This document shows, one piece after another, positions 2,371-42,135 of a stretch of 49,758 nucleotides of DNA. The translations under genes were made by a program, and so were the position numbers. The notes beneath the pieces were generated by a model. That model searched no databases and was not told where the DNA came from. It saw only the letters and a program-made list of their open reading frames with translations. Each line of letters starts with the position of its first letter. Positions within the stretch are counted from its first letter, which is position 1. Source of the stretch: Candidatus Moraniibacteriota bacterium (GTDB lineage Bacteria; Patescibacteriota; Minisyncoccia; Moranbacterales; UBA9337); NCBI GenBank assembly GCA_023229615.1, contig JALNYX010000003.1, forward strand, positions 1 to 49,758, given 5' to 3'.

Positions 2371-2385
2371 AACCAGAAAAAGAAT

Positions 2386-11196: not shown

Positions 11197-11203
11197 ATCG
11201 CAT

Positions 11204-13475: not shown

Positions 13476-14018
13476 ATGCGCTTGAAGCCGAAAACCATAC
13501 TCGAACTAGGTCCAGGAAATAACATCGTAACAAACATTCTCAAAACAATGAATTATGATGTTAAAACTCTTGATTTTGACAATTCCACTAAGCCAGATTA
13601 CAATTTGAGCATAACTGACGAAAAAATAGATAGCATAGGAACATTTGATTTAATTATAGCCTCGCAAGTCTTAGAACACATACAATACAAAGATTTCACT
13701 AAGGCGCTGAAAAATTTAAGTAAAATTTCAACGAATTTAATTTTAACTCTGCCCCACACAACAATAAATTCATTTACCATTTCCCTATCCCTTAAAATAC
13801 CTACGCTTAAAAAAATTACATTTTCAAAGAAATTTTTCTATAAAAAAGTTAACCACAAATTCAATGGTCTGCATTACTGGGAAATTGGAAAGAAGGATTT
13901 TCCAGTAAAAAAAATATCTAGCGACATCCAAAAATCAGGATGGATTATTCAGGCAGAATTTTTGAATGACGAAAATCCATTCCATTATTTTTTCATATTA
14001 AAAAAAACCTATGTTTAG
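13476..14018 (+). CDS. SAM-dependent methyltransferase, possibly frameshifted at its 5' end
   Basis: Motif I ILELGPGNN lies only about 8 aa from the Met. IASQVLEHI is present. A 51-codon ORF (13367-13522) in another frame looks like the missing N-terminus. Confidence 0.65.
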   Translation: MRLKPKTILELGPGNNIVTNILKTMNYDVKTLDFDNSTKPDYNLSITDEKIDSIGTFDLIIASQVLEHIQYKDFTKALKNLSKISTNLILTLPHTTINSFTISLSLKIPTLKKITFSKKFFYKKVNHKFNGLHYWEIGKKDFPVKKISSDIQKSGWIIQAEFLNDENPFHYFFILKKTYV

Positions 14019-14667
14019 TAATATACAATATTATTTTTGGGCTAGCTATAGACGAAAAATAATTGATAAACTCTCGGAAAAAAATAAATCTTTGTATACG
14101 GGAGTAGTTTTAGATATCGGAGGAAGAGACCGCGGTAAATTCAAAAAACCCAAAAAAAAAGTCGAAAACTGGATATTTGCCGATATTGAAGAAAAACATA
14201 ATCCAGACATGGTTTTGGATGTCATGGATATGCATGCTATTGCTAATAACAGCATTGATATAATCAGCGCCCTGGAACTCTTTGAGCACGTTAGCGTTCC
14301 CGAAAAAGGTATCGCTGAATGTTCTCGGGTGTTAAAAAATGGAGGTCTGCTTATTATTTCCATGCCATTTATGTATGGAACACATGCTGATCCATATGAT
14401 TTTCAGAGATGGACGAAAGCTAAGTGGGAATTAGTTCTTAATGAAAATAATTTAAATGTATTGAAAATTGAAGAAATGGGTTTTTTCTTTACCGTACTGA
14501 TGGATGCAATAAAAAATTTTTTAAAAAAATCCCATCGTATTTTTCGATACATTTCATATTGCTTTTACCCGATTTTCGATATAATCGCATCGCTTGATAA
14601 CATCAACAGCAAAAACCCCATCCTCAAATCATATGTAGGTGGTTATTTTATTATTGCAAAAAAATAA
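14011..14667 (+). CDS. SAM-dependent methyltransferase (Methyltransf_11-like)
   Basis: VLDIGGRDRG, ISALELFEHV, LKNGGLLIISMPF motifs. Confidence 0.8.
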   Translation: MFSNIQYYFWASYRRKIIDKLSEKNKSLYTGVVLDIGGRDRGKFKKPKKKVENWIFADIEEKHNPDMVLDVMDMHAIANNSIDIISALELFEHVSVPEKGIAECSRVLKNGGLLIISMPFMYGTHADPYDFQRWTKAKWELVLNENNLNVLKIEEMGFFFTVLMDAIKNFLKKSHRIFRYISYCFYPIFDIIASLDNINSKNPILKSYVGGYFIIAKK

Positions 14668-14678
14668 AATCACAATTT

Positions 14679-15995
14679 TCAGCCATCTTCCGTAGATTCT
14701 TCATACAAAATAGTTGCGAAGTTCAAAAAAAATAATACCAAAATCAATAAATTATACGAAATCACCGCACCAATTAACTTGAATTTATAAATTAGAAACA
14801 AACTCATTCCCAATCTAATTACCTGGAAAATCGGCCCCGAAACAAGTATTGTTAATCTTTTTTTACTTGCTTGCGCATAATAGCCAAAAAAAATTGTTGG
14901 GATGATAAACAAAATCGCCAAGGCATAATATCTAGAAATATCGTAATATTCAACATATACATCTCCAAATAAGAATTTATTCACAATTGGCACCAAAACA
15001 AAATAAACCGAAGCCATTAGTGCTGAAATAAGCATCATCACAATAAACAGTTTTTTATATATAAAAACAATGCTTTTTATTCCATAATTCATTACAGACA
15101 TTTTAGGAATTGCAACTGAAACAAAGACTTTCGCTATATCTTTATATTTATTTGCCAATAAAGAAATTATGACATATGCCGCCAATGTACTTGGACCCAA
15201 TAATATTCCAACCAACACATTGTCAATATTGTTAGCAATAATTCCCAAAAAATTTATTTTTGTCAAAAACCATCCATATTTAATAGTGCCAGAGTCTGTT
15301 TTCTCGTTTTCAATATATTTCAAACTCTTGAAATAATAATAACCATTGAAAAAAGTATAGGAAGCCAAATACATTACTACAATCGGAATCAACTTATCTC
15401 TATTTAAAAAAACAACCACTATAGTCGTGACGGCATTCAGTGTCATTTGCACTGAAGAATATTTCGTCGAAATATCAAACCTACTTTTGCCTTGTAAAAA
15501 AGCATCCCAAGTATTGGGAGCATAAAAAAATGGAAAGAATACCGATGCAATCATAAAAGCAACTCCCAATGAATGGCTTTGATAAATATAGTAATAACCC
15601 CCAATAAACAATAAAATAGGAGTCCCAAGCAAGCTCCAAAAAAAACTCATCCGAACAACCTTTTTATAATCTCCGTCATATCCCCTCGCAACAGATTGAG
15701 TAATTGCAGTATTTAAACCAGGAATTGATAAGATAGAAACAATTGACAGAACAGACAAAACAAATTGGTATTGACCGAAAATTTCCTGTGAAGCGAGGCG
15801 AGCGAAAGATATAGAAATAGACAATCCTGCAATCATACCTATTATCTGTCTAACGGCCACCCAGAATCCATTCTTAACAAAATAGGTCAAATCCAAACCA
15901 ATTATTTTTCCCCATTTTTTAGTCAATTTGAATATTTTATCTTGCAAATTCTTAATCATAGTATTTTTCCAATTTGTTTGAATGCCTGCTTTCAC
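14679..15995 (-). CDS. Polysaccharide flippase (MOP/Wzx-like)
   Basis: 438 aa with about 12-14 TM helices. Convergent with the GT operon. Met at 15959 is an alternative start. Confidence 0.75.
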   Translation of the reverse strand: MKAGIQTNWKNTMIKNLQDKIFKLTKKWGKIIGLDLTYFVKNGFWVAVRQIIGMIAGLSISISFARLASQEIFGQYQFVLSVLSIVSILSIPGLNTAITQSVARGYDGDYKKVVRMSFFWSLLGTPILLFIGGYYYIYQSHSLGVAFMIASVFFPFFYAPNTWDAFLQGKSRFDISTKYSSVQMTLNAVTTIVVVFLNRDKLIPIVVMYLASYTFFNGYYYFKSLKYIENEKTDSGTIKYGWFLTKINFLGIIANNIDNVLVGILLGPSTLAAYVIISLLANKYKDIAKVFVSVAIPKMSVMNYGIKSIVFIYKKLFIVMMLISALMASVYFVLVPIVNKFLFGDVYVEYYDISRYYALAILFIIPTIFFGYYAQASKKRLTILVSGPIFQVIRLGMSLFLIYKFKLIGAVISYNLLILVLFFLNFATILYEESTEDG

Positions 15996-25866: not shown

Positions 25867-27516
25867 CTATTTAATCTTAAAGACTGTCATCGACTCAGAA
25901 TCATATTCTTTTTCGAAATAATCCGACGAATAAAGAGCGGAAAATTTCTCCCAATCATCCGTCTTAGCAACAACGAAATGAGACACTCCGGCACTCTTCC
26001 AAAATTCCCGGTCATCCGGAATTATCTCCCCTGAAAGCAACAAAACATGTTCATCCCAAATACTTTTTTCCGCTTCCAACAAAAGTCGGTTATCCATATT
26101 TTTTCCAGTAATCATTGTTTCCAGAAAAAAGGCATTAGCCGGATTAGCAACCATCGCTCTGTCGGCGAAATTCAATTCACAATACATATGCCAAGGCAAA
26201 AAAAGCACTTCATTTGTTTTAATATCCGCCTGAAGAACCGCCTCTGCCTCATACCAGCCCCGAGGATAATCATATGGCGCTATCTGACCATATGCCCCAA
26301 AAAGCAACGTACCCGCCCAGAGAAATGGAATAACTGCAACTGAAGCAGATGAGAAAAATCGCAAATAATTCTCTTTCTGAATATGCGCTATTTTCCCCAA
26401 ATACAAAACAACATAGGATATTCCCAATGGTGTCAAAAAAGCATAACTAAAGGCAATTATACCGGAGATTTTCTCCGTATCGCGCAATCCGCGAAAAAAA
26501 GGCAGCGTAGCGAAAAGAAAATCAATAATTGGACGAGTAAACGAATCGCCATAGCCAACAGAAAGCAAAAGAGCTGGAACAAAAACAACAGCTACTGCCC
26601 TAGCCAAAACATTTCTTCGACGAATTTCCATCAACGCCCCAATAAAAGAAAAAAACATTACCGCTAAAGCAACCATCCACCACCAAGAAAAGAAATCCTT
26701 AAATTCCAAAAAATTACTACTCCAAAATCCATACAACGCCAGCACATTGAAATAGATTCCAAAATTCGGATCAGGCAAAGTGGAAAAAGCTTCAAAATCG
26801 CCAAGAGTAATATTGGAGAAAGTCTGGGAAGAATCAAAAAATCCTGCCAGCCAGAAACCATTGACCGCAAAAAATATTGCCACTAATATAGTCATTTTCA
26901 AAAAAACATTCCTCCATCCTCCCGACTCAAAATTTTCAACACTATCAACTTTTGACTTTTCAGATTTTATAGACTTAACAATCCCATAAACCAGCAAAAA
27001 CCCAGAGGCGATATATGCCCAATGGATACTGACAATCGGATAAACAGAAAAAACCAAAGCGAAAGCGACGAATCGCCGCCAAGTCCGAAGTTCGAAATAA
27101 CGATCAAGAAAAAACACGCTTACAGGGAAAAAACCATATCCCAACATCACTATCCAATGTCCAGCCATCAAGCGCTCACAAACATATAGATTGAGCATAT
27201 ACAGCAATCCCGCTCCTGTGGCAAGCGAACGACTCATATATCGCAAAGAAAGTCGATACATTGCAATCCCAGGCAAAAACAAAACCCCTGCCAAAACTAT
27301 TTTTTGCAAAACTTCCGCTGAAAAAAAATGATGCAACAAGAGCAACACCATTTGAAGTGGAAACCCTGAATCAATTCCTTTTCGCGCGATATCAGAAAAA
27401 TCCATTCCTGGACCCCAAACCATATCAATCAAAAACACAAAACCCGACCCAAAAAAAGGAGCTACGATCGCCGCAGTCAAACCGGAGAATATTAAAATAG
27501 GATAATACTTTTTCAT
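25867..27516 (-). CDS. Polytopic membrane protein (GT-C/polymerase-like), unknown specificity
   Basis: 549 aa with more than 12 hydrophobic segments and a soluble C-terminal approx. 120 aa. ATGA-type overlap with the upstream 137-aa gene. Confidence 0.65.
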   Translation of the reverse strand: MKKYYPILIFSGLTAAIVAPFFGSGFVFLIDMVWGPGMDFSDIARKGIDSGFPLQMVLLLLHHFFSAEVLQKIVLAGVLFLPGIAMYRLSLRYMSRSLATGAGLLYMLNLYVCERLMAGHWIVMLGYGFFPVSVFFLDRYFELRTWRRFVAFALVFSVYPIVSIHWAYIASGFLLVYGIVKSIKSEKSKVDSVENFESGGWRNVFLKMTILVAIFFAVNGFWLAGFFDSSQTFSNITLGDFEAFSTLPDPNFGIYFNVLALYGFWSSNFLEFKDFFSWWWMVALAVMFFSFIGALMEIRRRNVLARAVAVVFVPALLLSVGYGDSFTRPIIDFLFATLPFFRGLRDTEKISGIIAFSYAFLTPLGISYVVLYLGKIAHIQKENYLRFFSSASVAVIPFLWAGTLLFGAYGQIAPYDYPRGWYEAEAVLQADIKTNEVLFLPWHMYCELNFADRAMVANPANAFFLETMITGKNMDNRLLLEAEKSIWDEHVLLLSGEIIPDDREFWKSAGVSHFVVAKTDDWEKFSALYSSDYFEKEYDSESMTVFKIK

Positions 27517-27926
27517 TTTTTCGACTTTCGATTTTCAATTTTAAACTCTATTATCTGCTTGACTACTCCGATAACTAAAAAGAAATATACCCAAACTGCC
27601 ACCTGTTCCGCCCAAGCCTCGCCGACCGGAAGAATGTTTCGATTAGCCAATGCCAGCAATATAGGAATAATCACCAATCCAACCAAAGCCGCTCCGATAG
27701 AAATTCGCGAATCCAAATTCCAAAAAACCAGCACGAAAAAAAACAGCCAGAAAAAAATTCCTTCCAAAGTAAAATTGGCAAAATAAAAAAGACCAAGAGC
27801 AATAATGAAAAAAAACGCTCCGCCCACTTTGTCCCGCCGGGTAGAATTTTTCACCGACAAAAAAAGTTTGCGAAAGAAATTCCCCGCATCTTCCGGCATA
27901 AAAATATAATCTTTCAATTTGAACAT
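27513..27926 (-). CDS. Small membrane protein (3-4 TM)
   Basis: 137 aa, hydrophobic. Coupled to the 549-aa gene. Confidence 0.55.
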   Translation of the reverse strand: MFKLKDYIFMPEDAGNFFRKLFLSVKNSTRRDKVGGAFFFIIALGLFYFANFTLEGIFFWLFFFVLVFWNLDSRISIGAALVGLVIIPILLALANRNILPVGEAWAEQVAVWVYFFLVIGVVKQIIEFKIENRKSKK

Positions 27927-27939
27927 AAATTTATTTATA

Positions 27940-27967
27940 ATTATAACTTACACAACCAACCTTACAA
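27940..27967 (-). promoter_or_regulatory. Sigma70-like promoter for 27926->25867
   Basis: Minus strand reads TTGTAA-N16-TATAAT. The -10 ends 13 nt before the ATG, implying a very short leader. Confidence 0.45.
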
Positions 27968-27997
27968 CGCACGCCTCTTTATTATTGGATTATTAAA

Positions 27998-28033
27998 TGT
28001 GTCATTTAAATACGGCCGACGTAAGATGACACA
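27998..28033 (+). repeat. 36-bp composite palindrome, copy 1 (A.C type)
   Basis: TGTGTCATTTAAATACGGCCGACGTAAGATGACACA. It abuts the stop codon (28034-28036) of the PaaX-like gene. Confidence 0.9.
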
Positions 28034-28594
28034 TTAAATCAATTTGGAGAAATGCTTTTTCAAGACCGCTTCATTATCAATCTTTGTTGCCGTAATCACT
28101 CGGACATATCGTTCAGCACCATAAAGCGCTGTCAATTCCAAAATGGATTTTTCGCAAGGGTACGGCGACACAAACACACTATGTTGCAATTTGCGAAATT
28201 TGAGATTATGCAAATGTTCGCGCAATATATCTCGAAAAAGCCGATCTTTTTCAGGAACATCAAAAAGCACCACTCGCCACTTGCTATCCCAACGTTTCGG
28301 TTTTTTAAACATTATAGATCCACCGAGAAAATCCAACTTCCTGGCTTGTATTTTTCCCCTTGCAGTAAGAACCAACTCAAAAGATCCATCAGGAAGCTCA
28401 TTTTCTTTGATTAGTTTTTCTCTGGAAAGGGTGCGAATTGAACGGTTAAAATTTCGCTGATCAATATTTTTCCACTCACGTCGCACTTGACGCAATGTTT
28501 TGAAGTATTGCCTGGGAGATGAAGCACAACCAAGCGCCACTCCGCCCATAAGCGTAAGAAGGATTTTTTGCTGTACTGATCCGAATTTATACAT
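28034..28594 (-). CDS. PaaX-like small regulator (winged-helix N-terminus plus Cas2/VapD-like ferredoxin-fold domain)
   Basis: WRVVLFDVPEKDRLFRDILREHLHNLKFRKLQHSVFVSP matches the PaaX middle-domain pattern (W..V.FD.PE..R..R..LR..L...F..LQ.SV). N-terminal helix-rich segment. Confidence 0.55.
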   Translation of the reverse strand: MYKFGSVQQKILLTLMGGVALGCASSPRQYFKTLRQVRREWKNIDQRNFNRSIRTLSREKLIKENELPDGSFELVLTARGKIQARKLDFLGGSIMFKKPKRWDSKWRVVLFDVPEKDRLFRDILREHLHNLKFRKLQHSVFVSPYPCEKSILELTALYGAERYVRVITATKIDNEAVLKKHFSKLI

Positions 28595-28602
28595 ATTAAC
28601 AA

Positions 28603-28713
28603 TGTATCATAATTCCACGACCGACGGAAGATGACACAAAAAACAGGGATTACATACTATACTATTGGATTAAAAAATGTGTCATTTAGATACGGCCGAC
28701 GGTAGATGACACA
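28603..28713 (+). repeat. Two 36-bp palindromes: copy 2 (28603-28638, hybrid B.C type) and copy 3 (28678-28713, A.C type), separated by a 39-nt linker
   Basis: TGTATCATAATTCCACGACCGACGGAAGATGACACA and TGTGTCATTTAGATACGGCCGACGGTAGATGACACA. The linker is homologous to 32503-32541. Confidence 0.9.
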
Positions 28714-28714
28714 A

Positions 28715-28750
28715 ATAGAAGATTCTGTGAAGACTTCTATTTTAATTTTA
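28715..28750 (+). terminator. Hairpin plus T-tract (terminator-like), copy 1
   Basis: atagaag-N12-cttctat followed by tttaatttta. A near-identical copy lies at 32715-32750. Confidence 0.4.
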
Positions 28751-28795
28751 TCGCATCCTCCACTGCCCTTGCTAATTTCCTTGCCTTCCTTCTTT

Positions 28796-29011
28796 TCACA
28801 AAATTTTACCCTGTTTAATTTTTCTTTTATTTAACATGGCATAACCCAAATACCCAAGACAGCCAAACAATGTTGTTCCACTTATTAGCAAGCCTAAATA
28901 GAACCATCTTTGGGGGAAGAATTCGATGGTCATTTCTTCAATGTCATAACTACCGTCATCATTCAAAATACAGCCCGTACTTTCAACTCTATAACTTTCT
29001 ACTTTATACAC
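28796..29011 (-). pseudogene. Displaced paralogous copy of the C-terminal membrane-anchor segment of the 1044-aa protein
   Basis: Encodes ...NDDGSYDIEEMTIEFFPQRWFYLGLLISGTTLFGCLGYLGY..., compared with LNADGSYDIEMTIEFFPQRWFYLGLLISGTTLAGCLGYLGY at 32816-33010. A 29-nt identical core lies at 28896-28924 = 32940-32968. Confidence 0.7.
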
Positions 29012-29014
29012 TTT

Positions 29015-30046
29015 TCAACTTTTTCTTTTATTTTTTCTTCCTTCCAAATATTTTTTCACTTCCCGATCAAAATCAGAAATATAATTTTTATCTTGCTCAA
29101 TCCTAAATTTTTCATACTCTCCCAACGCAAGCGCTTTTGCAACATCATGACTAATTTTCCCGGCGTTCATCAAAATTTCATATTCACTGAATTTGAGAAA
29201 TGCATTAAGTTTCTGAACCCAATCCTTCATAAACATGGCTCGACCACGTGCCGCTTGCATTTCAGCATAATCCAAATACATATTACCGATGCGGTTTAAA
29301 TGCATCAATTCTTTTTTATCCAAATAATTTTTAGCGATGATTGTATCACTCGGCATGATTTTTCCATTCGGCGATCTCTGCCATGAAGTTAATCCCATTT
29401 TTTCTTTTTCACTATTAGCCCGATCTGAAATGATTTCTGCTGCAGTTTTGCCAGTGATAGCAAAATGAAGCTTATTCTGTACGGTAGCAAAAAATTCTTT
29501 ACTCTCACGCGCTTTTGGAGAATAATCAATAGCGGTTACATAAATATCAGTGATTTTTTGATAAATTCTGCGCTCGCTGGTGCGAATATCCCTAATTTCC
29601 TCATAAAGATCATCAAAATATCTGGCGCTAAAACGAGACCCATATTTCATTCGGTTAGAATCCAACGCATAACCTTTGTGAATATAATTTTTTAAAACTC
29701 CGGTTGCCCATTGGCGAAATTCCGTACCTCGCTCGGAATTTACGCGATAGCCGACAGCGATAATCACTTCAAGGCTATAAAAAGCAAGTTTTCTGGAAAT
29801 TTCTCGTTTTCCTTCTTTTTGAACTGCCGAGAATTCCTCGGTAGTTGAATTTTTATCAAGCTCATTTTCTTTGTAGATATTTTTCAAATGAAGTGATATG
29901 TTATCACTTGTGCAATCAAAAAGCTCGGCCATTTTCTTTTGCGTAAGCCAAATATTTTCTTCTGCGTAAAGCACCTCAATATTCACCGAACCTTCGGATG
30001 ATTGATAAAATGCGATTTGATTGTCAGGTATTTTTTTTATTGCCAT
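29015..30046 (-). CDS. rhuM: RhuM family protein (Fic/DOC-related virulence-associated family)
   Basis: ENIWLTQKKMAELF...YSLEVIIAVGYRVNSERGTEFRQWATGVLKNYIHKGYA are characteristic RhuM N-terminal and central motifs. 343 aa. Confidence 0.85.
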   Translation of the reverse strand: MAIKKIPDNQIAFYQSSEGSVNIEVLYAEENIWLTQKKMAELFDCTSDNISLHLKNIYKENELDKNSTTEEFSAVQKEGKREISRKLAFYSLEVIIAVGYRVNSERGTEFRQWATGVLKNYIHKGYALDSNRMKYGSRFSARYFDDLYEEIRDIRTSERRIYQKITDIYVTAIDYSPKARESKEFFATVQNKLHFAITGKTAAEIISDRANSEKEKMGLTSWQRSPNGKIMPSDTIIAKNYLDKKELMHLNRIGNMYLDYAEMQAARGRAMFMKDWVQKLNAFLKFSEYEILMNAGKISHDVAKALALGEYEKFRIEQDKNYISDFDREVKKYLEGRKNKRKS

Positions 30047-30200
30047 ATATTTAAAAATGTTTACAACTATGCCTTAATTATATACAAACAATACATGAAT
30101 ATCAATTTGTTTTAATTACTTCTTTATTACACTAAATCCATGTCAGAATAGTTACCTACTAACATAAGGATTACCGCTCTCTAACACACTCCCCTTTAAA

Positions 30201-30307
30201 TTTTTTGTTTTCAATTTTGATTACACTGATATTATACCACTGGATGTTTTTGCGTCAAATATTTCGTGTTTTATTCGGTGGAGTCAGATTATTGTTGGAT
30301 TAAAAGA
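30201..30307 (-). repeat. 107-bp promoter module, copy 1 (96% identical to 31955-32061)
   Basis: 4 mismatches in 107 nt by hand alignment. Ends in the TTGTTGGATTAAAA linker that precedes palindrome copy 4. Confidence 0.85.
30231..30258 (-). promoter_or_regulatory. Near-consensus promoter driving rhuM
   Basis: Minus strand reads TTGACG-N16-TATAAT with extended -10 TGGTATAAT. Confidence 0.6.
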
Positions 30308-30343
30308 TGTGTCATTTAGATACGGTCGACGGGAGATGACACA
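30308..30343 (+). repeat. 36-bp composite palindrome, copy 4 (A.C type)
   Basis: TGTGTCATTTAGATACGGTCGACGGGAGATGACACA, located between the divergent rhuM and zeta-toxin promoters. Confidence 0.9.
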
Positions 30344-30382
30344 TTTTCCGAGGAAGTGTTAATGGGAGGGGGTTAATACAAA

Positions 30383-30411
30383 TTGTCATCTTAATAAAAA
30401 AATGCTAAAAT
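30383..30411 (+). promoter_or_regulatory. Promoter of the zeta-toxin gene; predicts a leaderless mRNA
   Basis: TTGTCA-N17-TAAAAT with TGc extended -10. The -10 ends 6 nt before the ATG at 30418. Confidence 0.55.
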
Positions 30412-30417
30412 GCAAGC

Positions 30418-31128
30418 ATGAAACAAGCTGAAAACACCAAAATAGCTGAGGATGCTAAAGCTTTCATCAAAAAGAAAAAACGCGACCTCATAGATAAATT
30501 TGCCGACCTTGAAAAATTTCCTCCATCAGAAAAGCCATTTTCGTTTTTTATGGCTGGTTCTCCTGGCGCGGGAAAAACTGAATTCTCAAAAAGGCTCATA
30601 GAATCAATGATGCCTACGCCCATCGTAAGAATAGACGCCGACGAGATAAAAGAATTCATTCCTCAATATACAGGCAAAAACTCTGACATCGTACAGGGAG
30701 CGGCTTCAATTGCGGTGGATAATTTAAATTACTACGCCCTAAAACACAACCAAAATTTAATCATGGATGGCACGTTTGCACATTACGGGGTGGCACGCAA
30801 AAATATAATGAATTGTCTGAATAAAAAAAGGCAGATTAGCGTATTTTATATATACCAAGATCCTGTCGTCGCTTGGGATTTCACCCGGAAGCGCGAGAAG
30901 CTTGAGGGTCGCTATGTTCCAAAAGAAGCCTTTATCGAAGCATTTTTTAAGGCGAAAGAAAACGTACAGTTGATCAAGGAGGAGTTTGGCGAAAAAATAG
31001 AGCTCAACCTGATCATAAAAAATGACAAGAATGAAGACGAAGAAATCAAATCTAATATTAGCTCGAATATTGACGATTTTGCAATAATCGCATATAATAA
31101 GGAATCTCTAAATACAATCCTATGCTGA
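30418..31128 (+). CDS. Zeta-toxin family P-loop kinase
   Basis: Walker A FFMAGSPGAGKTEF followed by VRIDADE. 236 aa, typical zeta/PezT size and layout. Confidence 0.8.
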   Translation: MKQAENTKIAEDAKAFIKKKKRDLIDKFADLEKFPPSEKPFSFFMAGSPGAGKTEFSKRLIESMMPTPIVRIDADEIKEFIPQYTGKNSDIVQGAASIAVDNLNYYALKHNQNLIMDGTFAHYGVARKNIMNCLNKKRQISVFYIYQDPVVAWDFTRKREKLEGRYVPKEAFIEAFFKAKENVQLIKEEFGEKIELNLIIKNDKNEDEEIKSNISSNIDDFAIIAYNKESLNTILC

Positions 31129-31319
31129 AAAAAATAATTTCAAAATTTTCTCATAATAAAAAATCTCCAAAAAAAGAGGTCAATTTTTTCGATTTGTCCC
31201 AAGTTGAAAAAGAGCAGCTCATAAAAAAAGCTGCCAGACTTTCGTCCCAAGATCAAAAAGACCTTTTGAAAGAATACGATCGCAAATTCGGCGATCTGCA
31301 AACCAACTCTTGCAAATAA
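31122..31319 (+). CDS. Small Lys-rich protein overlapping the toxin stop (ATGCTGA); possible cognate partner
   Basis: 65 aa. 7-nt overlap with the toxin gene. A strong terminator follows. Confidence 0.45.
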   Translation: MLKKIISKFSHNKKSPKKEVNFFDLSQVEKEQLIKKAARLSSQDQKDLLKEYDRKFGDLQTNSCK

Positions 31320-31350
31320 ACAAGCGCGCGCCGCATTATCTCCCTTTCAA

Positions 31351-31380
31351 AAAATCCTGCCATAGTGGCAGGATTTTTAT
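31351..31380 (+). terminator. Rho-independent terminator of the toxin operon
   Basis: aaaatcctgcca-tag-tggcaggatttttatt. Confidence 0.75.
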
Positions 31381-31411
31381 TGTACCATTCTGAATTTGCG
31401 CTTATCGATAA

Positions 31412-31513
31412 TGTATCATAATTCCACGGCCGACGGTAGATGACACAAAAGATAGGGATTGTGTTTGTTGGGTTGAATGTGTCATTTAGATACGGTCGAC
31501 GTAAGATGACACA
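31412..31513 (+). repeat. Two 36-bp palindromes: copy 5 (31412-31447, hybrid B.C type) and copy 6 (31478-31513, A.C type)
   Basis: TGTATCATAATTCCACGGCCGACGGTAGATGACACA and TGTGTCATTTAGATACGGTCGACGTAAGATGACACA, with the 30-nt linker aaagatagggattgtgtttgttgggttgaa. Confidence 0.9.
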
Positions 31514-31547
31514 AATAGAGATGATGGGTAGTTTGATTGTGGGGTTG

Positions 31548-31664
31548 CTATGTTGTTTCTATCTTCCGCTTTTCCTCGCCCTGCCGAAGCCTTTGGCGAA
31601 GGCGGGTGCGGCGGTTAATGAGGTCGTATCCGAGATAACTTAGACAGCCAAATAATGTTGTGTC
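31548..31664 (-). pseudogene. Third remnant of the membrane-anchor/tail coding segment
   Basis: Hand translation gives DTTLFGCLSYLGYDLINRRTRLRQRLRQGEEKRKIETT*, compared with GTTLAGCLGYLGYDFVKRRKRRAGERERERVGDME* (intact gene) and GTTLFGCLGYLGYAMLNKRKIKQGKIL* (28796 copy). Confidence 0.6.
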
Positions 31665-31954
31665 TCAGTTAAAATTGCATCTAGATTATAGTGTTTTATA
31701 TCACGAGCAACTTCCCTTGAAGATTCCTTTTGAACTATCCGGAAATTCCGGATAGTTGAATTTTCATCCAATTCTTGCTCTAAATAAATATTAACCAGAT
31801 GCTCATTGACTGTGCGAACATTAACATTAAATAGTTCGGCGATTAATTTTTGCGTCAACCAAACATTCTCATCTTCAATTCTAACGTGGATTTTTTGTTT
31901 ATCGCCAAAAGATTGATAAATGGTAATTTGCTGTTTTTTTGAGTGCTTTTTCAT
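31640..31954 (-). pseudogene. Truncated RhuM-like gene (N-terminal approx. 95 aa only), running out of frame into the anchor remnant
   Basis: ENVWLTQKLIAELF...KHYNLDAIL aligns with the first third of the 343-aa RhuM protein, then ends TETQHYLAV*. Confidence 0.65.
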
Positions 31955-32061
31955 TTTTTTGTATTCAATTTTGATTACACTGATATTATACCACTGGATG
32001 TTTTAGCGTCAAATATTTCGTGTTTTATTCGGTGGAGTCAGATTATTGTTGAATTAAAAAA
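31955..32061 (-). repeat. 107-bp promoter module, copy 2
   Basis: 96% identical to 30201-30307. Here it directly abuts the start codon at 31954. Confidence 0.85.
31985..32012 (-). promoter_or_regulatory. Near-consensus promoter (duplicate of 30231-30258)
   Basis: Minus strand reads TTGACG-N16-TATAAT with TGGTATAAT. Confidence 0.55.
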
Positions 32062-32713
32062 TGTGTCATTTAGATACGGCCGACGTAGGATGACACAAAT
32101 TATAGATGGGCCGGGATTGAGTGTTGATAAAATACAGGGATTGTGTTTGTTAAATTGAGAATGTGTCATTTAGATACGGCCGACGGTAGATGACACAAAT
32201 GTTGAATGTGTCATTTAGATACGGCCGACGTAGGATGACACAAATTATAGGGATTGTGTTTGTTGGATTAAAATAGGCTTGTTGTGTCATTTAGATACGG
32301 CCGACGTAGGATGACACAAATTATAGATGGGCCAGGATTGAGTGTTGATAAAATACAGGGATTGTGTTTGTTGGATTAAAATAGGCTTGTTGTGTCATTT
32401 AGATACGGTCGACGTAGGATGACACAAAAGATAGAGATTGTGTTTGTTGGATTAAAATAGGCTTGTTGTGTCATTTAGATACGGCCGACGTAGGATGACA
32501 CAAAAAACAGGGATTACATACTATACTGTTGGATTACAAAATGTGTCATTTAGATACGGCCGACGGGAGATGACACAAAAGATAGAGATAGTGTTTGTTG
32601 AATTGAGAATGTGTCATTTAGATACGGCCGTGGAATTATGACACAAAAAATAGGGATTGTGTTTGTTGAATTGAGAATGTGTCATTTAGATACGGTCGAC
32701 GGGAGATGACACA
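32062..32713 (+). repeat. Array of nine 36-bp composite palindromes (copies 7-15) with recurrent linkers
   Basis: Copies at 32062, 32162, 32207, 32283, 32391, 32467, 32542, 32610 (hybrid A.B' type) and 32678. Linkers are 64, 9, 40, 72, 40, 39, 32 and 32 nt and share ...GGGATTGTGTTTGTTGGATTAAAA.... Confidence 0.9.
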
Positions 32714-32714
32714 A

Positions 32715-32750
32715 ATAGAAGTTTTTGTGAAGACTTCTATTTTAATTTTA
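32715..32750 (+). terminator. Hairpin plus T-tract (terminator-like), copy 2
   Basis: atagaagt-N10-acttctat followed by tttaatttta. It lies 65 nt beyond the stop of the 1044-aa gene, so it may act bidirectionally. Confidence 0.4.
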
Positions 32751-32815
32751 TCACCAACCCTTTCGAGAAGCAAAAAAACTTTTTTTTATTTCTACTTCTG
32801 TTTCTGTTTCTGTTC

Positions 32816-35800
32816 CTATTCCATATCACCCACCCGCTCTCGCTCCCGTTCTCCCGCCCTGCGCTTTCTTCGTTTTACAAAGTCATAACCCAAATAGCCA
32901 AGACAACCTGCGAGAGTTGTGCCGGAAATTAACAATCCCAAATAGAACCATCTTTGGGGGAAGAATTCTATGGTCATTTCGATGTCATAACTTCCATCAG
33001 CATTCAGCTTGCAGGCACTATTCAATTCATCACTTTCCGACTTTTGACTTTTGACTTTTGACTCACACAATTGTTCCGGTTCAACAAACCAGCCATTCAA
33101 AAATCCATTCAATTCAAAATGCTTGTCATCCGAAATCCGATCAGGCTTTACCCAAGGAATCCACGACGCGATAAATCGCGAGTATAAAGTCGAAAGTCGA
33201 AAGTTAAAAGCATTTGAGTCAACGATGCCAATCTTATTATTAGTAAGTTGTGCCTGCCACTGCGGATGAAAACTCTCACTCATCGCCAAATAAAACGGCG
33301 TAGTCGCCCCCTTGATATGAACTAATTTTTTGGTAGGATTCAATAAATCAAATGTTACTTCCTTAGGATCGACAAAATTAGTCTGAGGATCACTCACGAG
33401 ATAGTAATGATTTTGAATGTCAGGAAGCTCAATTAAATGAAAATTATCGTAAAGTGTCCTAATATTGGTCTTTTCATCTTGACTGAAAGAATAAACTGCA
33501 AGTGATGCTTCTTCCACACCATTTGGAATTGAGATGATTTTAGAAAAATGATGCCACTCATTATTTGTTATTGGAAGTCGTTTACTGATGTAGTTATTCT
33601 TACCAAAACCCAAGTAAAATGCTGCGATTTTTCCATCATCACTCTTATAATCAAAAGATAATAAATATGAAGCGTTACTTTTTAAATAAATTTTTCCCGT
33701 AGAAGTACACGCATTATGACGAATCGAGGATAATTCTAAAGAATTTAGACCATCCGTCCTATCGCTTGATAATTTCATTGAAATTAAGGGATTGTCATCG
33801 TAAGCATTGCAATCACTCACTGCTTTCTGCCACATTCCATCTTCAAAAGAAAAATTTAAAATATCATTTTTATAACTAAAATTATCATGTTTGTATGTAA
33901 TTCCCAATGAACTACCTGATAAAACATCAATAGCACTGTAATAATCCCTAATAATATCATCATCTTTTTCTAAAATTTTAATTTGAGATTGCAGTATCTC
34001 TATTTCTGCTGTTATATTATTAGAATATAAATAAGTTTTTCCATTTGTTGGAATATCCCTAAGAACAATTTCTTTATTTTGTATTTCTTCTGGTGTTAGA
34101 AATTCAAATAATCTAGTTATTTTTTGTGTTGGAAATTCAAATTTTTTTTCGGAAACAATAAAATCTTCTTTATCGCTAATGGTATCTAAAACAAATTCAA
34201 ATTTTTTATTAATATTTAAATATGAATCATATTGTGTCAAATCTAAAAATGACCTAAAATAATTTTTATAATTACTATTCTCATACACAACCAATTCCGT
34301 GGTTCCAATATCAATTCGCTTTAAATATGATAATTTGTCAAGATTATCAATATACCATTGACGGATATTAGGATTTTCCCTACCTCCATAATCTATAAAA
34401 AAATTATCATCATTACTATAATCGCTCAACGGCACTACGATATACTTAATAGACCCTGCATCCAAAAGATGATCTGAAAAATATTTATTAAATGGATCAA
34501 TGATTTTTAAAAATCTATCTCTCGGATGAATATCACCATCAACAAAATTTTTCCACATTTTGTCAGCTATATTAACACCAACTAATCGTGGGTGTTTGTC
34601 TGTATATGTGGCCCATTTACTTGTATGCGGAACCCAATATGTTCGAAAAAAATATGACTGAGAGTTTATAAATTCATTGTAGATTTTATAATCATCTGGT
34701 ATTTGCCTTGGAACAAACAATGTTTCAACACCTCCAGAAAAAAATGACCTTGTGTTTCCTAAAAATATAAATACCACTATAATAGTTAATATAATTCCGA
34801 CATTCTTTATAACTTTATTTTTATTCAATGTTACATAATAAACAAAACTACTAATTAAAACTGAGTAGCCAATGGCTATAAGAAAATAAAACTTACTTGC
34901 CTCTCTAAAAACTTGAAATCCTGGAATATGGGTAAATAGCCATTTATACAGCTCTGGAAAAGGGCTTACAGCTTGTTTAGATAATAAAATCCCAAAAATT
35001 GATATGATGGAGAAAAAAAGAACAAGACGATTTTTTTTCCCCAAAATTAAACCACAAAAAGATATTACAGGAACCAAGAAAAAATAAATTGGGATATGTT
35101 GTGTTTCAAAAACTGCAATTTTACCTCCTGTCCACCAAGGATGAAATAACGCAATAGACCTTGTAAGATTATAAAAACTACTCCCCCATAATTCTCTGCT
35201 AAGTATGGCATTTTCTTGACCACCACCGCTCATAATCATGCCCAGTATCCAGTAAATACTCAAAAAAAGAAATACCGAAAAAGAAACTATTGAATAAATA
35301 ATTATTGAAAAATCAAAATTTTCAAATAATTTAAAAATTGTATAGATAGCTAGTACCACTGAGACAATTAAGGCAACCCTAGGTTCATAAGAACTCAAAC
35401 CAAATAAGGTTAAGGCAGATACAATACAAAATAAAATTTTCTTTTCGTTTAACGCTTTTATAAAAAATAATATTGCAAATGGTGCTAATGCAAATGCAGT
35501 TGCTAATGTTATGTGTCCTGTTTGAAGTGTGAGTATGTAGCTATTAAAAGAATATACACCAGCACCAATGCAAGCAGCTAATACATTTTTAAATATATAT
35601 CTGTTTAAAAAATATGCCGAGAGTGGTGTAAATATAACGATTGGGAAAAAATATTGTATTCTTTCGATTATCTCCCATCTTAAAAAATTATTTAATGCTA
35701 AAACACCAGATAATGCATACGTTGGAGCTTGCCCGACATCAGAAAGATGCCTACCAAAATTTTGATCAGATAACCATAGCGAAAAATAGTTTATCCTTAG

Positions 35801-35950
35801 TGAATACAAAGTCTCATTGAAAAAATAAGTCCAATCACCATGAGTTATAATGGCATCACTAAATAGCCATCTATGATAAATTAACATAGTGACCATGCAT
35901 AAAATTATAATTGGCCATTTCTCTTTTGCTTTTTTAAAAAGATAATTCAT
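32816..35950 (-). CDS. 1044-aa membrane protein: polytopic N-terminal approx. 400 aa (GT-C-like), large extracytoplasmic domain, C-terminal TM anchor with Arg/Glu tail
   Basis: More than 12 N-terminal hydrophobic segments. C-terminal FFPQRWFYLGLLISGTTLAGCLGYLGY helix. First gene after the four downstream GT genes of the minus-strand operon. Confidence 0.8.
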   Translation of the reverse strand: MNYLFKKAKEKWPIIILCMVTMLIYHRWLFSDAIITHGDWTYFFNETLYSLRINYFSLWLSDQNFGRHLSDVGQAPTYALSGVLALNNFLRWEIIERIQYFFPIVIFTPLSAYFLNRYIFKNVLAACIGAGVYSFNSYILTLQTGHITLATAFALAPFAILFFIKALNEKKILFCIVSALTLFGLSSYEPRVALIVSVVLAIYTIFKLFENFDFSIIIYSIVSFSVFLFLSIYWILGMIMSGGGQENAILSRELWGSSFYNLTRSIALFHPWWTGGKIAVFETQHIPIYFFLVPVISFCGLILGKKNRLVLFFSIISIFGILLSKQAVSPFPELYKWLFTHIPGFQVFREASKFYFLIAIGYSVLISSFVYYVTLNKNKVIKNVGIILTIIVVFIFLGNTRSFFSGGVETLFVPRQIPDDYKIYNEFINSQSYFFRTYWVPHTSKWATYTDKHPRLVGVNIADKMWKNFVDGDIHPRDRFLKIIDPFNKYFSDHLLDAGSIKYIVVPLSDYSNDDNFFIDYGGRENPNIRQWYIDNLDKLSYLKRIDIGTTELVVYENSNYKNYFRSFLDLTQYDSYLNINKKFEFVLDTISDKEDFIVSEKKFEFPTQKITRLFEFLTPEEIQNKEIVLRDIPTNGKTYLYSNNITAEIEILQSQIKILEKDDDIIRDYYSAIDVLSGSSLGITYKHDNFSYKNDILNFSFEDGMWQKAVSDCNAYDDNPLISMKLSSDRTDGLNSLELSSIRHNACTSTGKIYLKSNASYLLSFDYKSDDGKIAAFYLGFGKNNYISKRLPITNNEWHHFSKIISIPNGVEEASLAVYSFSQDEKTNIRTLYDNFHLIELPDIQNHYYLVSDPQTNFVDPKEVTFDLLNPTKKLVHIKGATTPFYLAMSESFHPQWQAQLTNNKIGIVDSNAFNFRLSTLYSRFIASWIPWVKPDRISDDKHFELNGFLNGWFVEPEQLCESKVKSQKSESDELNSACKLNADGSYDIEMTIEFFPQRWFYLGLLISGTTLAGCLGYLGYDFVKRRKRRAGERERERVGDME
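33039..33063. repeat. 7-bp tandem repeat (GACTTTT)x3.6 inside the CDS; inverted partner (AAAGTCG)x2.9 at 33186-33205
   Basis: gacttttgacttttgacttttgact, and aaagtcgaaagtcgaaagtt about 125 nt away in opposite orientation. Confidence 0.85.
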
Positions 35951-40290: not shown

Positions 40291-40774
40291 GAACCACTGA
40301 TTCTCACGTGATTTTATTGATTGCACGTGATTAGAGTTTCGTTATTTTACATATCTCTTAACTTCTAAACTTCTAGCACCAAAATTTATCAGCAAACCCA
40401 GCTTAACCTTATAGGCTTCGATGTAGTTTATTAGCTGAGCGATGTTCACATCTTCTAGTTTTGTTATCGCCTTCAACTCAACCATAACATCTCTGTCAAC
40501 CAAAAAATCAACTCTTCTAGTGCCGACCAATTGTTCTTCGTAGAAAATATCCATTTCTTTTTCACGTTCAAACTTCAATCCCTCTTTTTCAAATTCAATC
40601 GCCAATGATCTTTGATAGATAACCTCCTGAAAACCATTGCCCAGGGTACGATGCACCTTCTGCGCGCATTTGATAATCTTTCCCGTCACATCTGACTTAT
40701 AATATTTTTCATCTATATAATTATCCATAAAAATCATGTGTACTTATGTGTAAATCAGTGAGAATCAGTGGTTC
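40291..40774 (-). mobile_element. 484-bp cassette: GxxExxY gene bounded by 17-bp perfect inverted repeats
   Basis: GAACCACTGATTCTCAC at 40291-40307 and its exact reverse complement at 40758-40774. The match extends to 23 of 24 positions with one gap. Confidence 0.45.
40342..40737 (-). CDS. GxxExxY family protein (PD-(D/E)XK nuclease-like fold)
   Basis: LGNGFQEVIYQRSL (GxxExxY), RVDFLVDRDVMVELKA (D...ExK) and LINFG motifs. 131 aa. Confidence 0.8.
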   Translation of the reverse strand: MIFMDNYIDEKYYKSDVTGKIIKCAQKVHRTLGNGFQEVIYQRSLAIEFEKEGLKFEREKEMDIFYEEQLVGTRRVDFLVDRDVMVELKAITKLEDVNIAQLINYIEAYKVKLGLLINFGARSLEVKRYVK

Positions 40775-40779
40775 TGACT

Positions 40780-42135
40780 TTATCTGTGGTTCACGATCTC
40801 CCAATGCCCGCCTTTGTCTGGACCGATTCTTTTGATGAGTCCTTTCTCTTTCAACCTTGCAATATCTCTCTTGATGGTTTTTTCATTTACCTGCAACTCT
40901 TTCGCAATTTCAGAAATAGCAATATCATTTTTGCTTTCTACTAAACGCATAATCAGATCAGCCCTTTCAGGGACATTTTCAGGGACATTTTCAGGGACAT
41001 TTTCAGGGACATTTTCAGGGACATTTTTCCTGCGTTTCCAAAAAACAATCACAAAAGCCCCTGATCTTTCAGAAAAATCAGGCATCTCATTGCCATTCTT
41101 TTCACACTCTTCAATTATCCGTTGGAAGCCTGCTCCCCAATTTTCTACCAATTCAATTTGATGAAAAATTTCCACCAACTTTTTGTTTCTCGGGATAGAT
41201 CTGTTTTCAGTGAGAATACTTTTTATATTAATCTCTTTAGGTAAAAGCCCTGGACTCCAAATTTCAAGAGAATTATCAAAAATTCTAATTTGAATATTCC
41301 CCGGATCATTATAGTCCCGATGAATAAGCGCATTAATGACTGCTTCGCGCAGAGCTAAGAGTGGATAATCCCAAACTTCATCTCTTTTTGGCTTTCCAGT
41401 CATGACAAATTCCGTATTGATGTGTCGCTTGATGAAATCCATCGTTTCGTCAACGGCGCGAATAATGTTTCCGTCAAATTCTTTTTCGTCCAAAAATTTG
41501 GCAACACTTTCCCCTTTAAACCTTGCCGCCTTCACAATGACATTGTGCATCTCAGTATTGTTTTTTACAAAACAAAGATAGCCAGCATTGGTAATTTTAT
41601 TTTTTACTATCAACCCAATCTTTTTCAAAAAATCAATTGAGGAAACGACCTTAAGCTTGTAATATTCTTTGTTTACCCTCTCAATAAGTCTATCATCAAA
41701 TTCGACTTTTTTAGAATCTTTTTCCAAATACATTTTGTCGAAATCCGATAAGGCATATCTTTTTATTAACTCCCTCACTTCCGTTTGAGACATTTTTTGG
41801 TTGGTTTTTCCGACTCTCATATATGCCCTATCAAAAGCAAACACGGGCTTATTGTCAGATTCCGAGACTTCAATCTCCACGATTTCACCCAAGCCGAAAG
41901 TTTTAACATTTATGGATGGGTACAGAATTGGATCAGTATGATTTTTTATTTTATTGGCGAAATCTTCAATAGTGCTTTTTCCGAGCTGAATTTCACTAGC
42001 CACGCCATCATCTTTCATACCGATAACAACCTTTCCGCCTTTTCTATTGGCAAAGGCGCAAAGAGCAACGATCGCCTCTTTCCATTCAGAAAATGAAGTT
42101 TTTAATTCAATTTTTTCAGATTCTTTTAATTTCAT
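40780..42135 (-). CDS. AlbA_2 (Schlafen-like) plus HATPase_c_4 plus C-terminal wHTH protein (family often annotated as a RecG-like putative DNA-binding/ATP-binding regulator)
   Basis: ESEKIELKTSFSEWKEAIVALCAFANRKGGKVVIGMKDDG (AlbA_2). LREAVINALIHRDY. C-terminal ISEIAKELQVNEKTIKRDIARLKEKGLIKR. Confidence 0.8.
   Translation of the reverse strand: MKLKESEKIELKTSFSEWKEAIVALCAFANRKGGKVVIGMKDDGVASEIQLGKSTIEDFANKIKNHTDPILYPSINVKTFGLGEIVEIEVSESDNKPVFAFDRAYMRVGKTNQKMSQTEVRELIKRYALSDFDKMYLEKDSKKVEFDDRLIERVNKEYYKLKVVSSIDFLKKIGLIVKNKITNAGYLCFVKNNTEMHNVIVKAARFKGESVAKFLDEKEFDGNIIRAVDETMDFIKRHINTEFVMTGKPKRDEVWDYPLLALREAVINALIHRDYNDPGNIQIRIFDNSLEIWSPGLLPKEINIKSILTENRSIPRNKKLVEIFHQIELVENWGAGFQRIIEECEKNGNEMPDFSERSGAFVIVFWKRRKNVPENVPENVPENVPENVPERADLIMRLVESKNDIAISEIAKELQVNEKTIKRDIARLKEKGLIKRIGPDKGGHWEIVNHR
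40968..41027. repeat. Perfect 12-bp tandem repeat x5 (cagggacatttt) encoding (ENVP)5 in the linker before the wHTH
   Basis: Five identical units counted base by base. In-frame (12 nt). Confidence 0.95.

Follow-up and report, generated by a model that had tools for sequence, protein, structure and literature searches.

Among described systems, those closest to the DNA considered here are the PaaX-type regulators, whose operator is about 15 bp long, and site-bounded gene arrays such as chromosomal integrons and the Xer-dependent elements of Acinetobacter, in which pdif sites of 28 bp (11-6-11) flank modules in alternating orientation. Members of the Patescibacteria are difficult to grow in culture, and to our knowledge almost nothing is known of their gene regulation. 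A stretch of 49,758 bp from a member of this group, Candidatus Moraniibacteriota (contig JALNYX010000003.1, positions 1 to 49,758, assembly GCA_023229615.1; here called the window), carries a gene for a PaaX-like protein and an array of 36-bp composite palindromes, some of which had been read in a preliminary description of the same DNA as products of site-specific recombination. Judged from sequence, the PaaX-like protein, in which a winged helix-turn-helix is joined to a Cas2-like domain, most likely binds these 36-bp sites as its cognate operators. With a rough probability of 0.55, they are operator/promoter modules of this regulator within a recombination-prone hotspot of defense genes. 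A regulator-operator module and a defense hotspot are known kinds of system; the widespread architecture of gene plus sites is apparently undescribed, and no description of the sites or of this architecture was found in the literature on Patescibacteria with PaaX, Cas2-like, gene cassettes, integron, or attC.

The 36-bp sites and the PaaX-like gene

A search with the degenerate pattern TGTRTCAT-N7-CG-N2-CG-N7-ATGACACA returned 15 sites in the window, all in a single orientation, between positions 27998 and 32713, against 0 such sites expected by chance (100 shuffles of the window). They start at 27998, 28603, 28678, 30308, 31412, 31478, 32062, 32162, 32207, 32283, 32391, 32467, 32542, 32610, and 32678. 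Each is built of an outer box (TGTRTCAT), a variable patch of 7 nt, the center CGGCCG (within ACGGCCGT), a second 7-nt patch, and the inverted outer box. Arm types, named A and B on the left and C and B' on the right, are distinguished by the inner 7-nt patch and, in the window, also by G or A at position 4 of the outer box. The tally of 15 direct copies given in the preliminary description was borne out by the pattern search: 12 are A.C, 2 are B.C (28603 and 31412), and 1 is A.B' (32610). Its statement that B' is the exact reverse complement of B holds only through the A/G degeneracy with which B was written, as both B arms of the window read TGTATCAT and the reverse complement of B' reads TGTGTCAT, in agreement at 17 of 18 positions. 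Minor variants include the center of copy 2 (CGACCG instead of CGGCCG), the arm of copy 1 (the A variant TTTAAATA, here A*), and a T at position 19 in copies 4, 6, 11, and 15, all of which are A.C. Copy 14, the window's sole site without a C arm, differs from the adjacent A.C sites in the inner 7-nt patch alone.

Two of the sites enclose a small gene, as follows.

27998-28033, plus strand: site copy 1 (A*.C), directly adjoined by the stop codon TAA of the PaaX-like gene, as in at least 10 other lineages
28034-28594, minus strand: PaaX-like gene of 186 amino acids (Pfam PaaX_M, E = 9e-22), between copies 1 and 2
28603-28638, plus strand: site copy 2 (B.C), promoter-proximal to the PaaX-like gene and 8 bp before its ATG; minus-strand reading ...AATTATGATACAttgttaatATG

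This putatively DNA-binding gene lies just left of the interval on which the preliminary description had concentrated and was overlooked there. PaaX_M (PF20803) is the only family matched by the encoded protein, which reaches 23 bits with TIGR02277 (cutoff, 264). The predicted structure (predicted local distance difference test [pLDDT] score, 64, which is moderate) consists of a winged helix of the order helix-helix-helix-strand-strand, followed by a Cas2-like ferredoxin fold. Foldseek ranked the Escherichia coli PaaX repressor (8a39) first, Rv0674 next, and Cas2 proteins after these; no recombinase fold was present among the structural matches of the model. Homologs with 65 to 80% identity, 331 among the matches listed, were spread over many metagenome-assembled genomes (MAGs), and the wider family comprised 1480 clusters at E <= 1e-10.

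Stretches of other genomes and contigs that were compared with the window are numbered L001 to L069. The PaaX-like gene was found in at least 5 different genomic contexts, and in all lineages examined it was tightly bracketed by two sites. The upstream site lies 8 to 9 bp before the ATG in nine lineages (the window, L002, L003, L008, L030, L033, L035, L038, and L065), in which the palindrome overlaps the predicted -10 promoter region of the gene. The downstream site starts 0 to 12 bp past the stop codon, or overlaps it, in at least 12 lineages. A B-type arm adjoining the start codon is kept in most lineages; together with its next two bases it reads TGATACAAT (TGATACATT in the window), which resembles an extended -10 element (TGaTACAAT) placed 6 nt before the ATG. 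Whether this element was GATACAAT, GATATAAT, or the canonical TATAAT, it invariably ended 6 nt upstream of the ATG, and where the site sits further upstream, a canonical TATAAT occupies the same distance. The placing of a -10 element within the arm of the site suggests that the gene is probably leaderless and self-regulated. Among 145 proteins neighboring sites, PaaX_M was the sole recurrent family (7 members); the other neighbors included NUDIX, Fic, methyltransferase, GNAT, APH, and DUF3800 proteins.

When one genome per species was scanned, 30 stretches contained the pattern, the majority of them belonging to MAGs of Moranbacteria and other Patescibacteria. Three matches with a high guanine-plus-cytosine (GC) content, including Nitrosospira and Azospirillum, which look like chance, and one match on a viral contig were left out of the census of sites. 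A viral origin of the sites was considered and rejected: the scan of IMG/VR gave 1 match, with site and flank the same as in the high-GC Azospirillum stretch (L029). Among the 87 unique sites of the census, the B-type patches AATTCCA, AATTCTA, and AATTATA were the commonest arms outside the window (45 arms), and the A patch was restricted to the window, its sister strain, and L041. Perfect B.B' palindromes occur in L005, L015, L022, and L024, and many arm combinations besides A.C, B.C, and B.B' were found. At positions 18 and 19, the center was GGCC in 57 sites, GACC in 13, GGTC in 13, and GATC in 3. This polymorphism is confined to symmetric transitions, as deamination of 5-methylcytosine at GGCC would produce, and so hints that genomes carrying these sites have a methyltransferase of the HaeIII type.

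More distant relatives retain the arrangement with altered sequences. In L054, the outer boxes are symmetric and of the CACTCA..TGAGTG type, the center is unchanged, and the sites are still linked to a PaaX-like gene. In L063, the PaaX_M protein of which is 39% identical, the outer boxes are GTACCAAAA..TTTTGGTAC, and the sites (GTACCAAAA-N-AGACGACCGCAT-TTTTTGGTAC, at approximately 7075-7112, 8275-8312, 8466-8503, and 9135-9172) are placed round the PaaX-like gene and at the right end of a unit with a zeta-toxin gene (zeta unit). Within a genome, sites thus change in step while their linkage to the PaaX-like gene persists. Most related genomes carry the two bracketing sites only, and arrays with gene-free units were seen in the window, L044, and L030. 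Many contigs with a PaaX-like or zeta gene, among them L032, L034, L036, L037, and L067 to L069, start or stop no more than a few tens of bases from a site, which suggests that assemblies break there from repeats or strain heterogeneity.

Many sites stand alone, either downstream of a stop codon or between two convergent genes, and are bordered by A-runs and T-runs; the outer boxes vary symmetrically, so that the palindrome is maintained, and the B.B' form has a strong predicted hairpin (-14.2 kcal/mol). These properties would suit structural repeats, either of the repetitive extragenic palindrome/bacterial interspersed mosaic element (REP/BIME) type or acting as bidirectional terminators, that are unrelated to the PaaX-like protein and are spread by a transposase encoded elsewhere. 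Such an origin is improbable given the invariant linkage to the PaaX-like gene at a fixed spacing and the conservation of sequence beyond what structure requires. A.C is a poor hairpin, and B.C has no stable single-strand fold (-0.7 kcal/mol, z = +1.4). The copies are direct and not alternating, and no Y1, REP-associated tyrosine transposase (RAYT), or IS200-type gene was found in the window or as a recurrent member of the proteins neighboring the sites. Membership in attC or another known RNA or DNA family was also rejected, as positions 27500-33300 gave no Rfam match, CRISPR-DR included, and single-strand folding was inconsistent between site types.

The length of the repeat, several spacers of 30 to 40 bp, and the Cas2-like domain of the adjacent protein recall a degenerate array of clustered regularly interspaced short palindromic repeats (CRISPR). 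This explanation is effectively refuted. The spacers between sites range from 9 bp to 1.6 kb, are mutually related, and in some cases bear genes; CRISPR-DR gave no match; and the PaaX-like protein, taken as a whole, matches the PaaX regulator. No cas1, effector, or other cas gene was found in the window beyond the Cas2-like domain itself.

The array, its cargo, and its counterparts in related genomes

To the left and right of the gene and the two sites listed above, the locus contains the following features.

25867-27516, minus strand: p549, an MmpA-like membrane protein (NCBIfam MmpA match)
27513-27926, minus strand: p137, likewise a membrane protein, which with p549 forms the left border of the insertion
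28639-28713, plus strand: gene-free unit alpha (39 bp) and site copy 3 (A.C), 94% identical to 32481-32579 (repeat D4)
28714-29011, minus strand: hairpin block and stub of the 3' end of the large membrane-protein gene (stub open reading frame [ORF], 28796-29011)
29015-30046, minus strand: RhuM-family gene (Pfam Virulence_RhuM, E = 4e-104; PADLOC candidate defense system PDC-S05, E = 6e-144)
30195-30343, minus strand: promoter block P and site copy 4 (A.C); TTGACG-16-TATAAT with TG at 30258-30231, reading leftward
30418-31128, plus strand: zeta-toxin-like gene (Pfam Zeta_toxin, E = 1e-39)
31122-31319, plus strand: orf65, which overlaps the zeta-toxin-like gene
31374-31447, plus strand: decayed stub of a PaaX-like 5' end (31374-31411) and site copy 5 (B.C, 31412-31447), repeat D7
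31478-31513, plus strand: site copy 6 (A.C), from the pattern search
31640-32097, minus strand: truncated RhuM N-terminal fragment (31640-31954), second promoter block P (promoter, 32012-31985), and site copy 7; repeat D5
32162-32577, plus strand: site copies 8 to 13, with mutually related gene-free units of 9 to 72 bp between them (types alpha, beta, and delta)
32610-32645, plus strand: site copy 14 (A.B'), arms assigned from the pattern search
32678-32815, plus strand: site copy 15 (A.C, 32678-32713) and the hairpin block preceding the large gene
32816-35950, minus strand: membrane protein of 1044 amino acids (big), the right border, syntenic with large proteins of L035, L060, and L061

Short tandem repeats, ttctgtttctgtttctgtt and gacttttgacttttgacttttgac, were observed at 32796-32815 and 33040-33065, downstream of the stop codon of the large gene and within its 3' end, and repeats of the aaagtc type occupy the matching place in L061 (9244-9362). 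Exact look-ups of the RhuM and zeta proteins of the window on other contigs found no record. On the minus strand, promoter scoring picked out ATGACA of the A arms as a -35 element and -10-like hexamers inside gene-free units; these promoter-like signals fit with regulatory modules.

Four relatives (L035, L060, L061, and L065) were informative at the orthologous position. In L035/L036, where the PaaX-like protein is 80% identical, the order is large gene, site, 18 bp, site, PaaX-like gene, site, p193, p546; all 3 sites are B.C in the orientation of the window, and neither an A arm nor B.B' is present. L065/L066, a close relative of L035, carries two B.C and two B.F' sites. In L060 (p549, 62% identical; p137, 72% identical) and L061, the large gene, p137, and p549 are contiguous, and no PaaX-like gene or site was found at the syntenic locus. 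The 39-bp spacer of L060 (9450-9488) contains GTAT-TTAATTCCACAGAC, a degenerate B-like stretch resembling a decayed B arm (shuffle p ~0.005-0.009).

A sister strain (L031/L042) is 98% identical to window positions 26769-28963 and shares copies 1 to 3 and the large-gene stub. In L031, an unrelated Bro-N gene (PADLOC PDC-S13) takes the place of RhuM behind the same promoter block P, which is 96% identical between the two. After the Bro-N unit, A.B' follows directly in L031/L042, then three A.C sites, so that in both strains the variable genes lie between copy 2 (B.C) and A.B'. The two breakpoints of the RhuM/Bro-N swap both lie away from sites, one within the large-gene stub (28963) and the other in the promoter block (30195).

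The preliminary description had taken the two B.C copies and the A.B' copy for hybrid junctions of the attL/attR type. A circle carrying an A.C site would have integrated into a chromosomal B.B' site beside the large gene, giving B.C at 28603 (and a nested one at 31412) and A.B' at 32610; the predicted empty site was TGTRTCATAATTCCACGGCCGTGGAATTATGAYACA, between 28602 and 32646. Excision from the actual arms would leave a near-perfect palindrome, and not the perfect one of 36 bp that had been predicted, with one mismatched pair from copy 5 and two from copy 2. The arithmetic of arm exchange in this scenario works, and B.B' palindromes are known in the site family. Both strains keep their variable genes between copy 2 and A.B', and the B-like stretch in the empty locus of L060 would suit a former B arm. 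The coincidence of intervals of about 4.0 kb on which the scenario drew is also real (4007 bp from copy 2 to copy 14, 4000 bp from copy 3 to copy 15, and 4044 bp between the anchor duplicates). The modular nature of the arms was likewise upheld by their many combinations and by B.B' in other genomes, and the content of the island does vary between sister strains, but the reading of B.C and A.B' as attL/attR-type products is not supported.

Several findings make integration of an A.C circle very improbable. B.C is the standard site in six genomes that have no A arm (L035, L065, L004, L025, L026, and L044). The B arm, far from being a special chromosomal half-site, carries the patch type that is commonest outside the window and that is kept beside the PaaX-like start codon; B-type arms are essentially ordinary variants among many copies, the observation that the preliminary description had itself named as contrary evidence. 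B.B' was absent at the orthologous position in all four relatives, L060 and L061 being without sites, L035 having B.C, and L065 having B.C and B.F'. Two B.C sites are impossible from a single integration, and the "inserted" segment would hold a stub of a neighboring chromosomal gene.

Exchange at the center is, moreover, unneeded to account for the arms, which differ by the 7-nt patch and the G/A at outer-box position 4. Between the third orthologous sites of L035 and L065, the inner patch ACGGGAG is replaced by TGGTTTG, with conservation of both flanks and of the outer boxes, among them the unusual GTGATACA; a swapped arm thus requires no crossover at CGGCCG. The variable trinucleotide of the C arm follows neither flank and is of no use for placing a crossover.

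The nested B.C copy has a history of its own. The PaaX-like stub and copy 5 form repeat D7 (80% over 87 nt); aligned in register, the 38 nt left of copy 5 agree with the 5' end of the PaaX-like gene at 25 of 38 positions, and no non-self match in the window is better; the stub also resembles the PaaX-like 5' ends of L035 and L033. Homologs of the zeta and orf65 genes, 79 to 82% identical, adjoin a PaaX_M gene in L062 to L064 and L065/L066, and the zeta unit of L065 terminates identically, in a PaaX-like stub followed by a B arm. The B arm of copy 5, which belongs to the zeta unit in two genomes, would thus have been inherited with that unit and marks no new junction. A 1475-bp contig (L067; ENA ERZ18640406) contains, at 1-150 and 1365-1475, a head-to-tail junction of a zeta unit of about 1.36 kb. 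At the start of the contig, the unit's end, a PaaX-like stub with a B.F' site, is joined to the spacer and site normally found after the PaaX-proximal site. Such a junction could reflect a tandem duplication, a circle, or an assembly effect.

Gene stubs of three kinds are present in the window, namely, the large-gene 3' end, the PaaX-like 5' end, and the RhuM N terminus. The large-gene stub (28796-29011) matches residues 965-1022 of the 1044-amino-acid protein with 76% identity in protein and 79% in DNA (repeat D6), and in L065, copies of a site plus the large-gene 3' end lie on both sides of the zeta unit. The RhuM fragment (31640-31954) has 47% protein identity to the N terminus of full RhuM, and the promoter block P copies at 30195-30343 and 31949-32097 are 93% identical (repeat D5). 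Block P and its site are thus 93 to 96% conserved beside cargo that is 47% identical or unrelated. No site is present on the left side of the zeta unit of L065 and L063. Unit boundaries coincide with sites for the PaaX-like ORF; they do not for the RhuM/Bro-N swap, the left side of the zeta unit, or the stubs. The gene stubs fit homology-driven and illegitimate recombination, and not a clean exchange of site-bounded cassettes. Duplication of a block together with its site was also observed in L033, where a 125-bp block (~99% identical) and its adjoining site stand before the PaaX-like gene and before an unrelated two-gene unit (7695-7870 and 9817-9992).

These boundaries bear on a second recombination-based explanation, in which the sites are core sites of a cassette system like those of integrons or pdif modules. 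A recombinase would act on them in trans, or would need the PaaX/Cas2-like protein as its site-binding subunit; arms of about 14 bp would flank ACGGCCGT as the overlap region, and the excision and reinsertion of circular units with half-site ends would swap the arms. The direct orientation of all 15 sites, the PaaX-like ORF bounded as tightly as an integron cassette, the gene-free units in the window, L044, and L030, and the diverse arm combinations all agree with such a system. So do the variable occurrence of the module at a syntenic locus and its other contexts elsewhere, the strain-dependent content of the array, the head-to-tail junction in L067, and cargo like that of chromosomal integrons (NUDIX, GNAT, Fic, and toxins). 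We nevertheless regard it as doubtful. No integrase, recombinase, or transposase domain was detected in any of the 48 ORFs of the 49.7-kb window, which extends the preliminary statement that none is encoded between the sites. None was listed within 8 to 10 kb of the PaaX-like gene in the precomputed Pfam listings of eight other genomes, and none recurred among the 145 site-neighboring proteins in a Pfam survey. Boundaries of units and of replaced cargo fall inside genes or promoter blocks, three kinds of stub remain in the window, and the patch replacement between L035 and L065 kept both flanks. The polymorphic center (GGCC, GACC, and GGTC) would give heterology in the overlap region, and attC-like recognition is unlikely for B.C, which does not fold as a single strand. 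By direct reading, GTTGGAT is present left of the A arms, and a complementary partner on the same strand is absent.

A stronger form of the same idea is that the PaaX/Cas2-like protein and the sites make up a new integron-analogous system of module exchange in Patescibacteria, with an 8-bp conserved core in the sites, the protein as site-recognition or even catalytic subunit, and toxin and defense genes shuffled between arrays as site-bounded units. This we consider unlikely.

A proposed regulator and a hotspot

Under the explanation that we favor, operator/promoter modules in a defense-gene hotspot, the PaaX-like protein would bind the sites and repress its own gene and perhaps neighboring genes as well, and the B arm with its next two bases would serve as the extended -10 element of a probably leaderless transcript. 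The regulator module is placed between two conserved membrane-protein genes, and its locus is a strain-variable hotspot for cargo, which is RhuM/PDC-S05 and the zeta toxin in the window and Bro-N/PDC-S13 in the sister strain, each with a promoter of its own and flanked by copies of a site and of short blocks. The site and conserved flanking blocks of 20 to 125 bp (block P and the 125-bp block of L033) could act as portable homology. The array would have grown by duplication, unequal crossing-over, homology-driven replacement, and short-patch conversion among the repeated modules, with stubs left behind. B.C would then be the ordinary, ancestral regulator-proximal site, the second B.C (31412) what remains of another regulator module, one joined to the zeta unit, A a lineage-specific patch, and A.B' an A.C-type site with a B-type inner patch.

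The anatomy of the sites, their co-occurrence with the gene, their geometry, the strain differences, and the breakpoints are read directly from the sequences; binding by the protein, repression, and the recombination pathway are predicted from them. A number of observations weigh against this account. Changes in the recognition helix do not track those in the outer boxes cleanly, the lineages being too few, and P0085 has nearly the same helix with different outer boxes. Taken by itself, an operator model accounts neither for arrays that reach 15 sites and include gene-free units (the window, L044, and L030) nor for sites that abut the stop codons of genes other than the PaaX-like gene (L018 and L027), and gives no reason for the presence of the whole module in the window and L035 and its absence at the syntenic locus of L060 and L061. 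The origin of the B' patch of copy 14 is not explained by it either, and the zeta junction of L067 may have come from a circle as well as from a tandem copy.

If the regulatory account is true, the family of PaaX/Cas2-like proteins, with its 1480 clusters, gains a DNA target, a predicted leaderless and self-repressing promoter, and a role over toxin and candidate defense genes. The locus would also show how a repeated operator and promoter module serves as portable homology for swaps of defense genes between strains. For readings made from sequence alone, it is a caution that modular palindromes imitate attL/attR logic when their arms differ in little beyond a 7-nt patch.

Elsewhere in the window, a PD-(D/E)XK_3 nuclease-family gene and a gene with Schlafen/AlbA_2, HATPase_c_4, and helix-turn-helix domains lie at 40342-42135 (minus strand), inside a glycosyltransferase cluster. 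The Schlafen/AlbA_2 gene carries a peptide repeat (VPEN, five times), no 36-bp site is near, and PADLOC indicated weak similarity to regulators of the Argonaute-associated and CARF/Csa3 types. At 1331-15995, a block of genes for glycosyltransferases and methyltransferases has a GC content of 27 to 33%, compared to 35 to 43% in the rest of the window, and looks like a horizontally acquired surface-glycan cluster. The ORF at 214-1206 (plus strand) contains at least 4 tandem copies of a repeat of about 45 amino acids (GDWDGNGTDEIGVFRPSTATF...) after an InlB B-repeat-like domain.

Comparison with described systems

In its working the locus would be most like an autoregulated PaaX-type repressor with its operators, set in a kind of defense-island hotspot, the likeness to a chromosomal integron or to pdif modules being superficial. 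REP/BIME elements with RAYT genes differ in that the copies here are direct and the window holds no RAYT gene, and CRISPR arrays differ in that the spacers here are related and uneven (9 bp to 1.6 kb) and lack cas genes. Elements that integrate by attP x attB recombination differ from the locus in three ways: its empty relatives have no intact B.B', its B.C sites are not confined to junctions, and it carries no recombinase. Centromere-like arrays such as sopC of the F plasmid, beside sopB, resemble the locus in being direct arrays of about 10 inverted-repeat units that adjoin the gene of the likely binding protein. The window, in contrast, has no partition ATPase, its genes are interleaved with the sites, and most related genomes have two bracketing sites only.

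Chromosomal integrons and clusters of attC sites lacking integrases (CALIN), for example those of Vibrio cholerae repeats (VCRs), resemble the locus in several respects: imperfect palindromes are repeated in one orientation, adjoin stop codons, and are each accompanied by short conserved blocks; the cargo consists of accessory or toxin genes; some units contain no gene; content differs between strains; and some arrays have no recombinase nearby. They differ in IntI, which the window does not encode, and in the R'', L'', L', and R' boxes with GTTRRRY, which its sites do not have. The center of the sites is conserved and is not a variable loop, B.C lacks a single-strand fold, and the cargo has its own promoters, occurs in both orientations, and has breakpoints away from the sites. 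The pdif modules of Acinetobacter and other Xer-dependent elements are likewise small, include toxin-antitoxin genes, and are associated with short recombinase-type palindromes with exchangeable arms and with a recombinase encoded elsewhere. The sites of the window, however, are 36 bp long and direct in 15 of 15 cases, no Xer gene is present in the window, and their sole constant partner is the PaaX-like gene.

With PaaX and Rv0674-type regulators, the protein shares the N-terminal winged helix and the central Cas2-like domain (PF20803), its best structural match being PaaX itself (8a39). A palindromic site over the -10 region of its own promoter is also what would be expected of an autoregulated repressor. 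The protein of the window differs in its length of 186 amino acids and in lacking the C-terminal PaaX domain. No phenylacetate pathway is nearby, and no paa genes were found in the window; the neighbors are toxins and candidate defense genes. Unlike PaaX operators, the sites are 36-bp composite palindromes with variable patches that bracket the gene on both sides and form arrays.

Defense islands and integration hotspots resemble the locus in their fixed position between conserved genes and in the differing candidate defense genes of sister strains, here RhuM (PDC-S05) versus Bro-N (PDC-S13), together with the zeta toxin, as well as in replacement by way of conserved flanking blocks. What sets this locus apart is the nature of those blocks, which consist of repeated operator-like palindromes, with a portable promoter block, that are tied to a dedicated small regulator, and not of core or tRNA genes.

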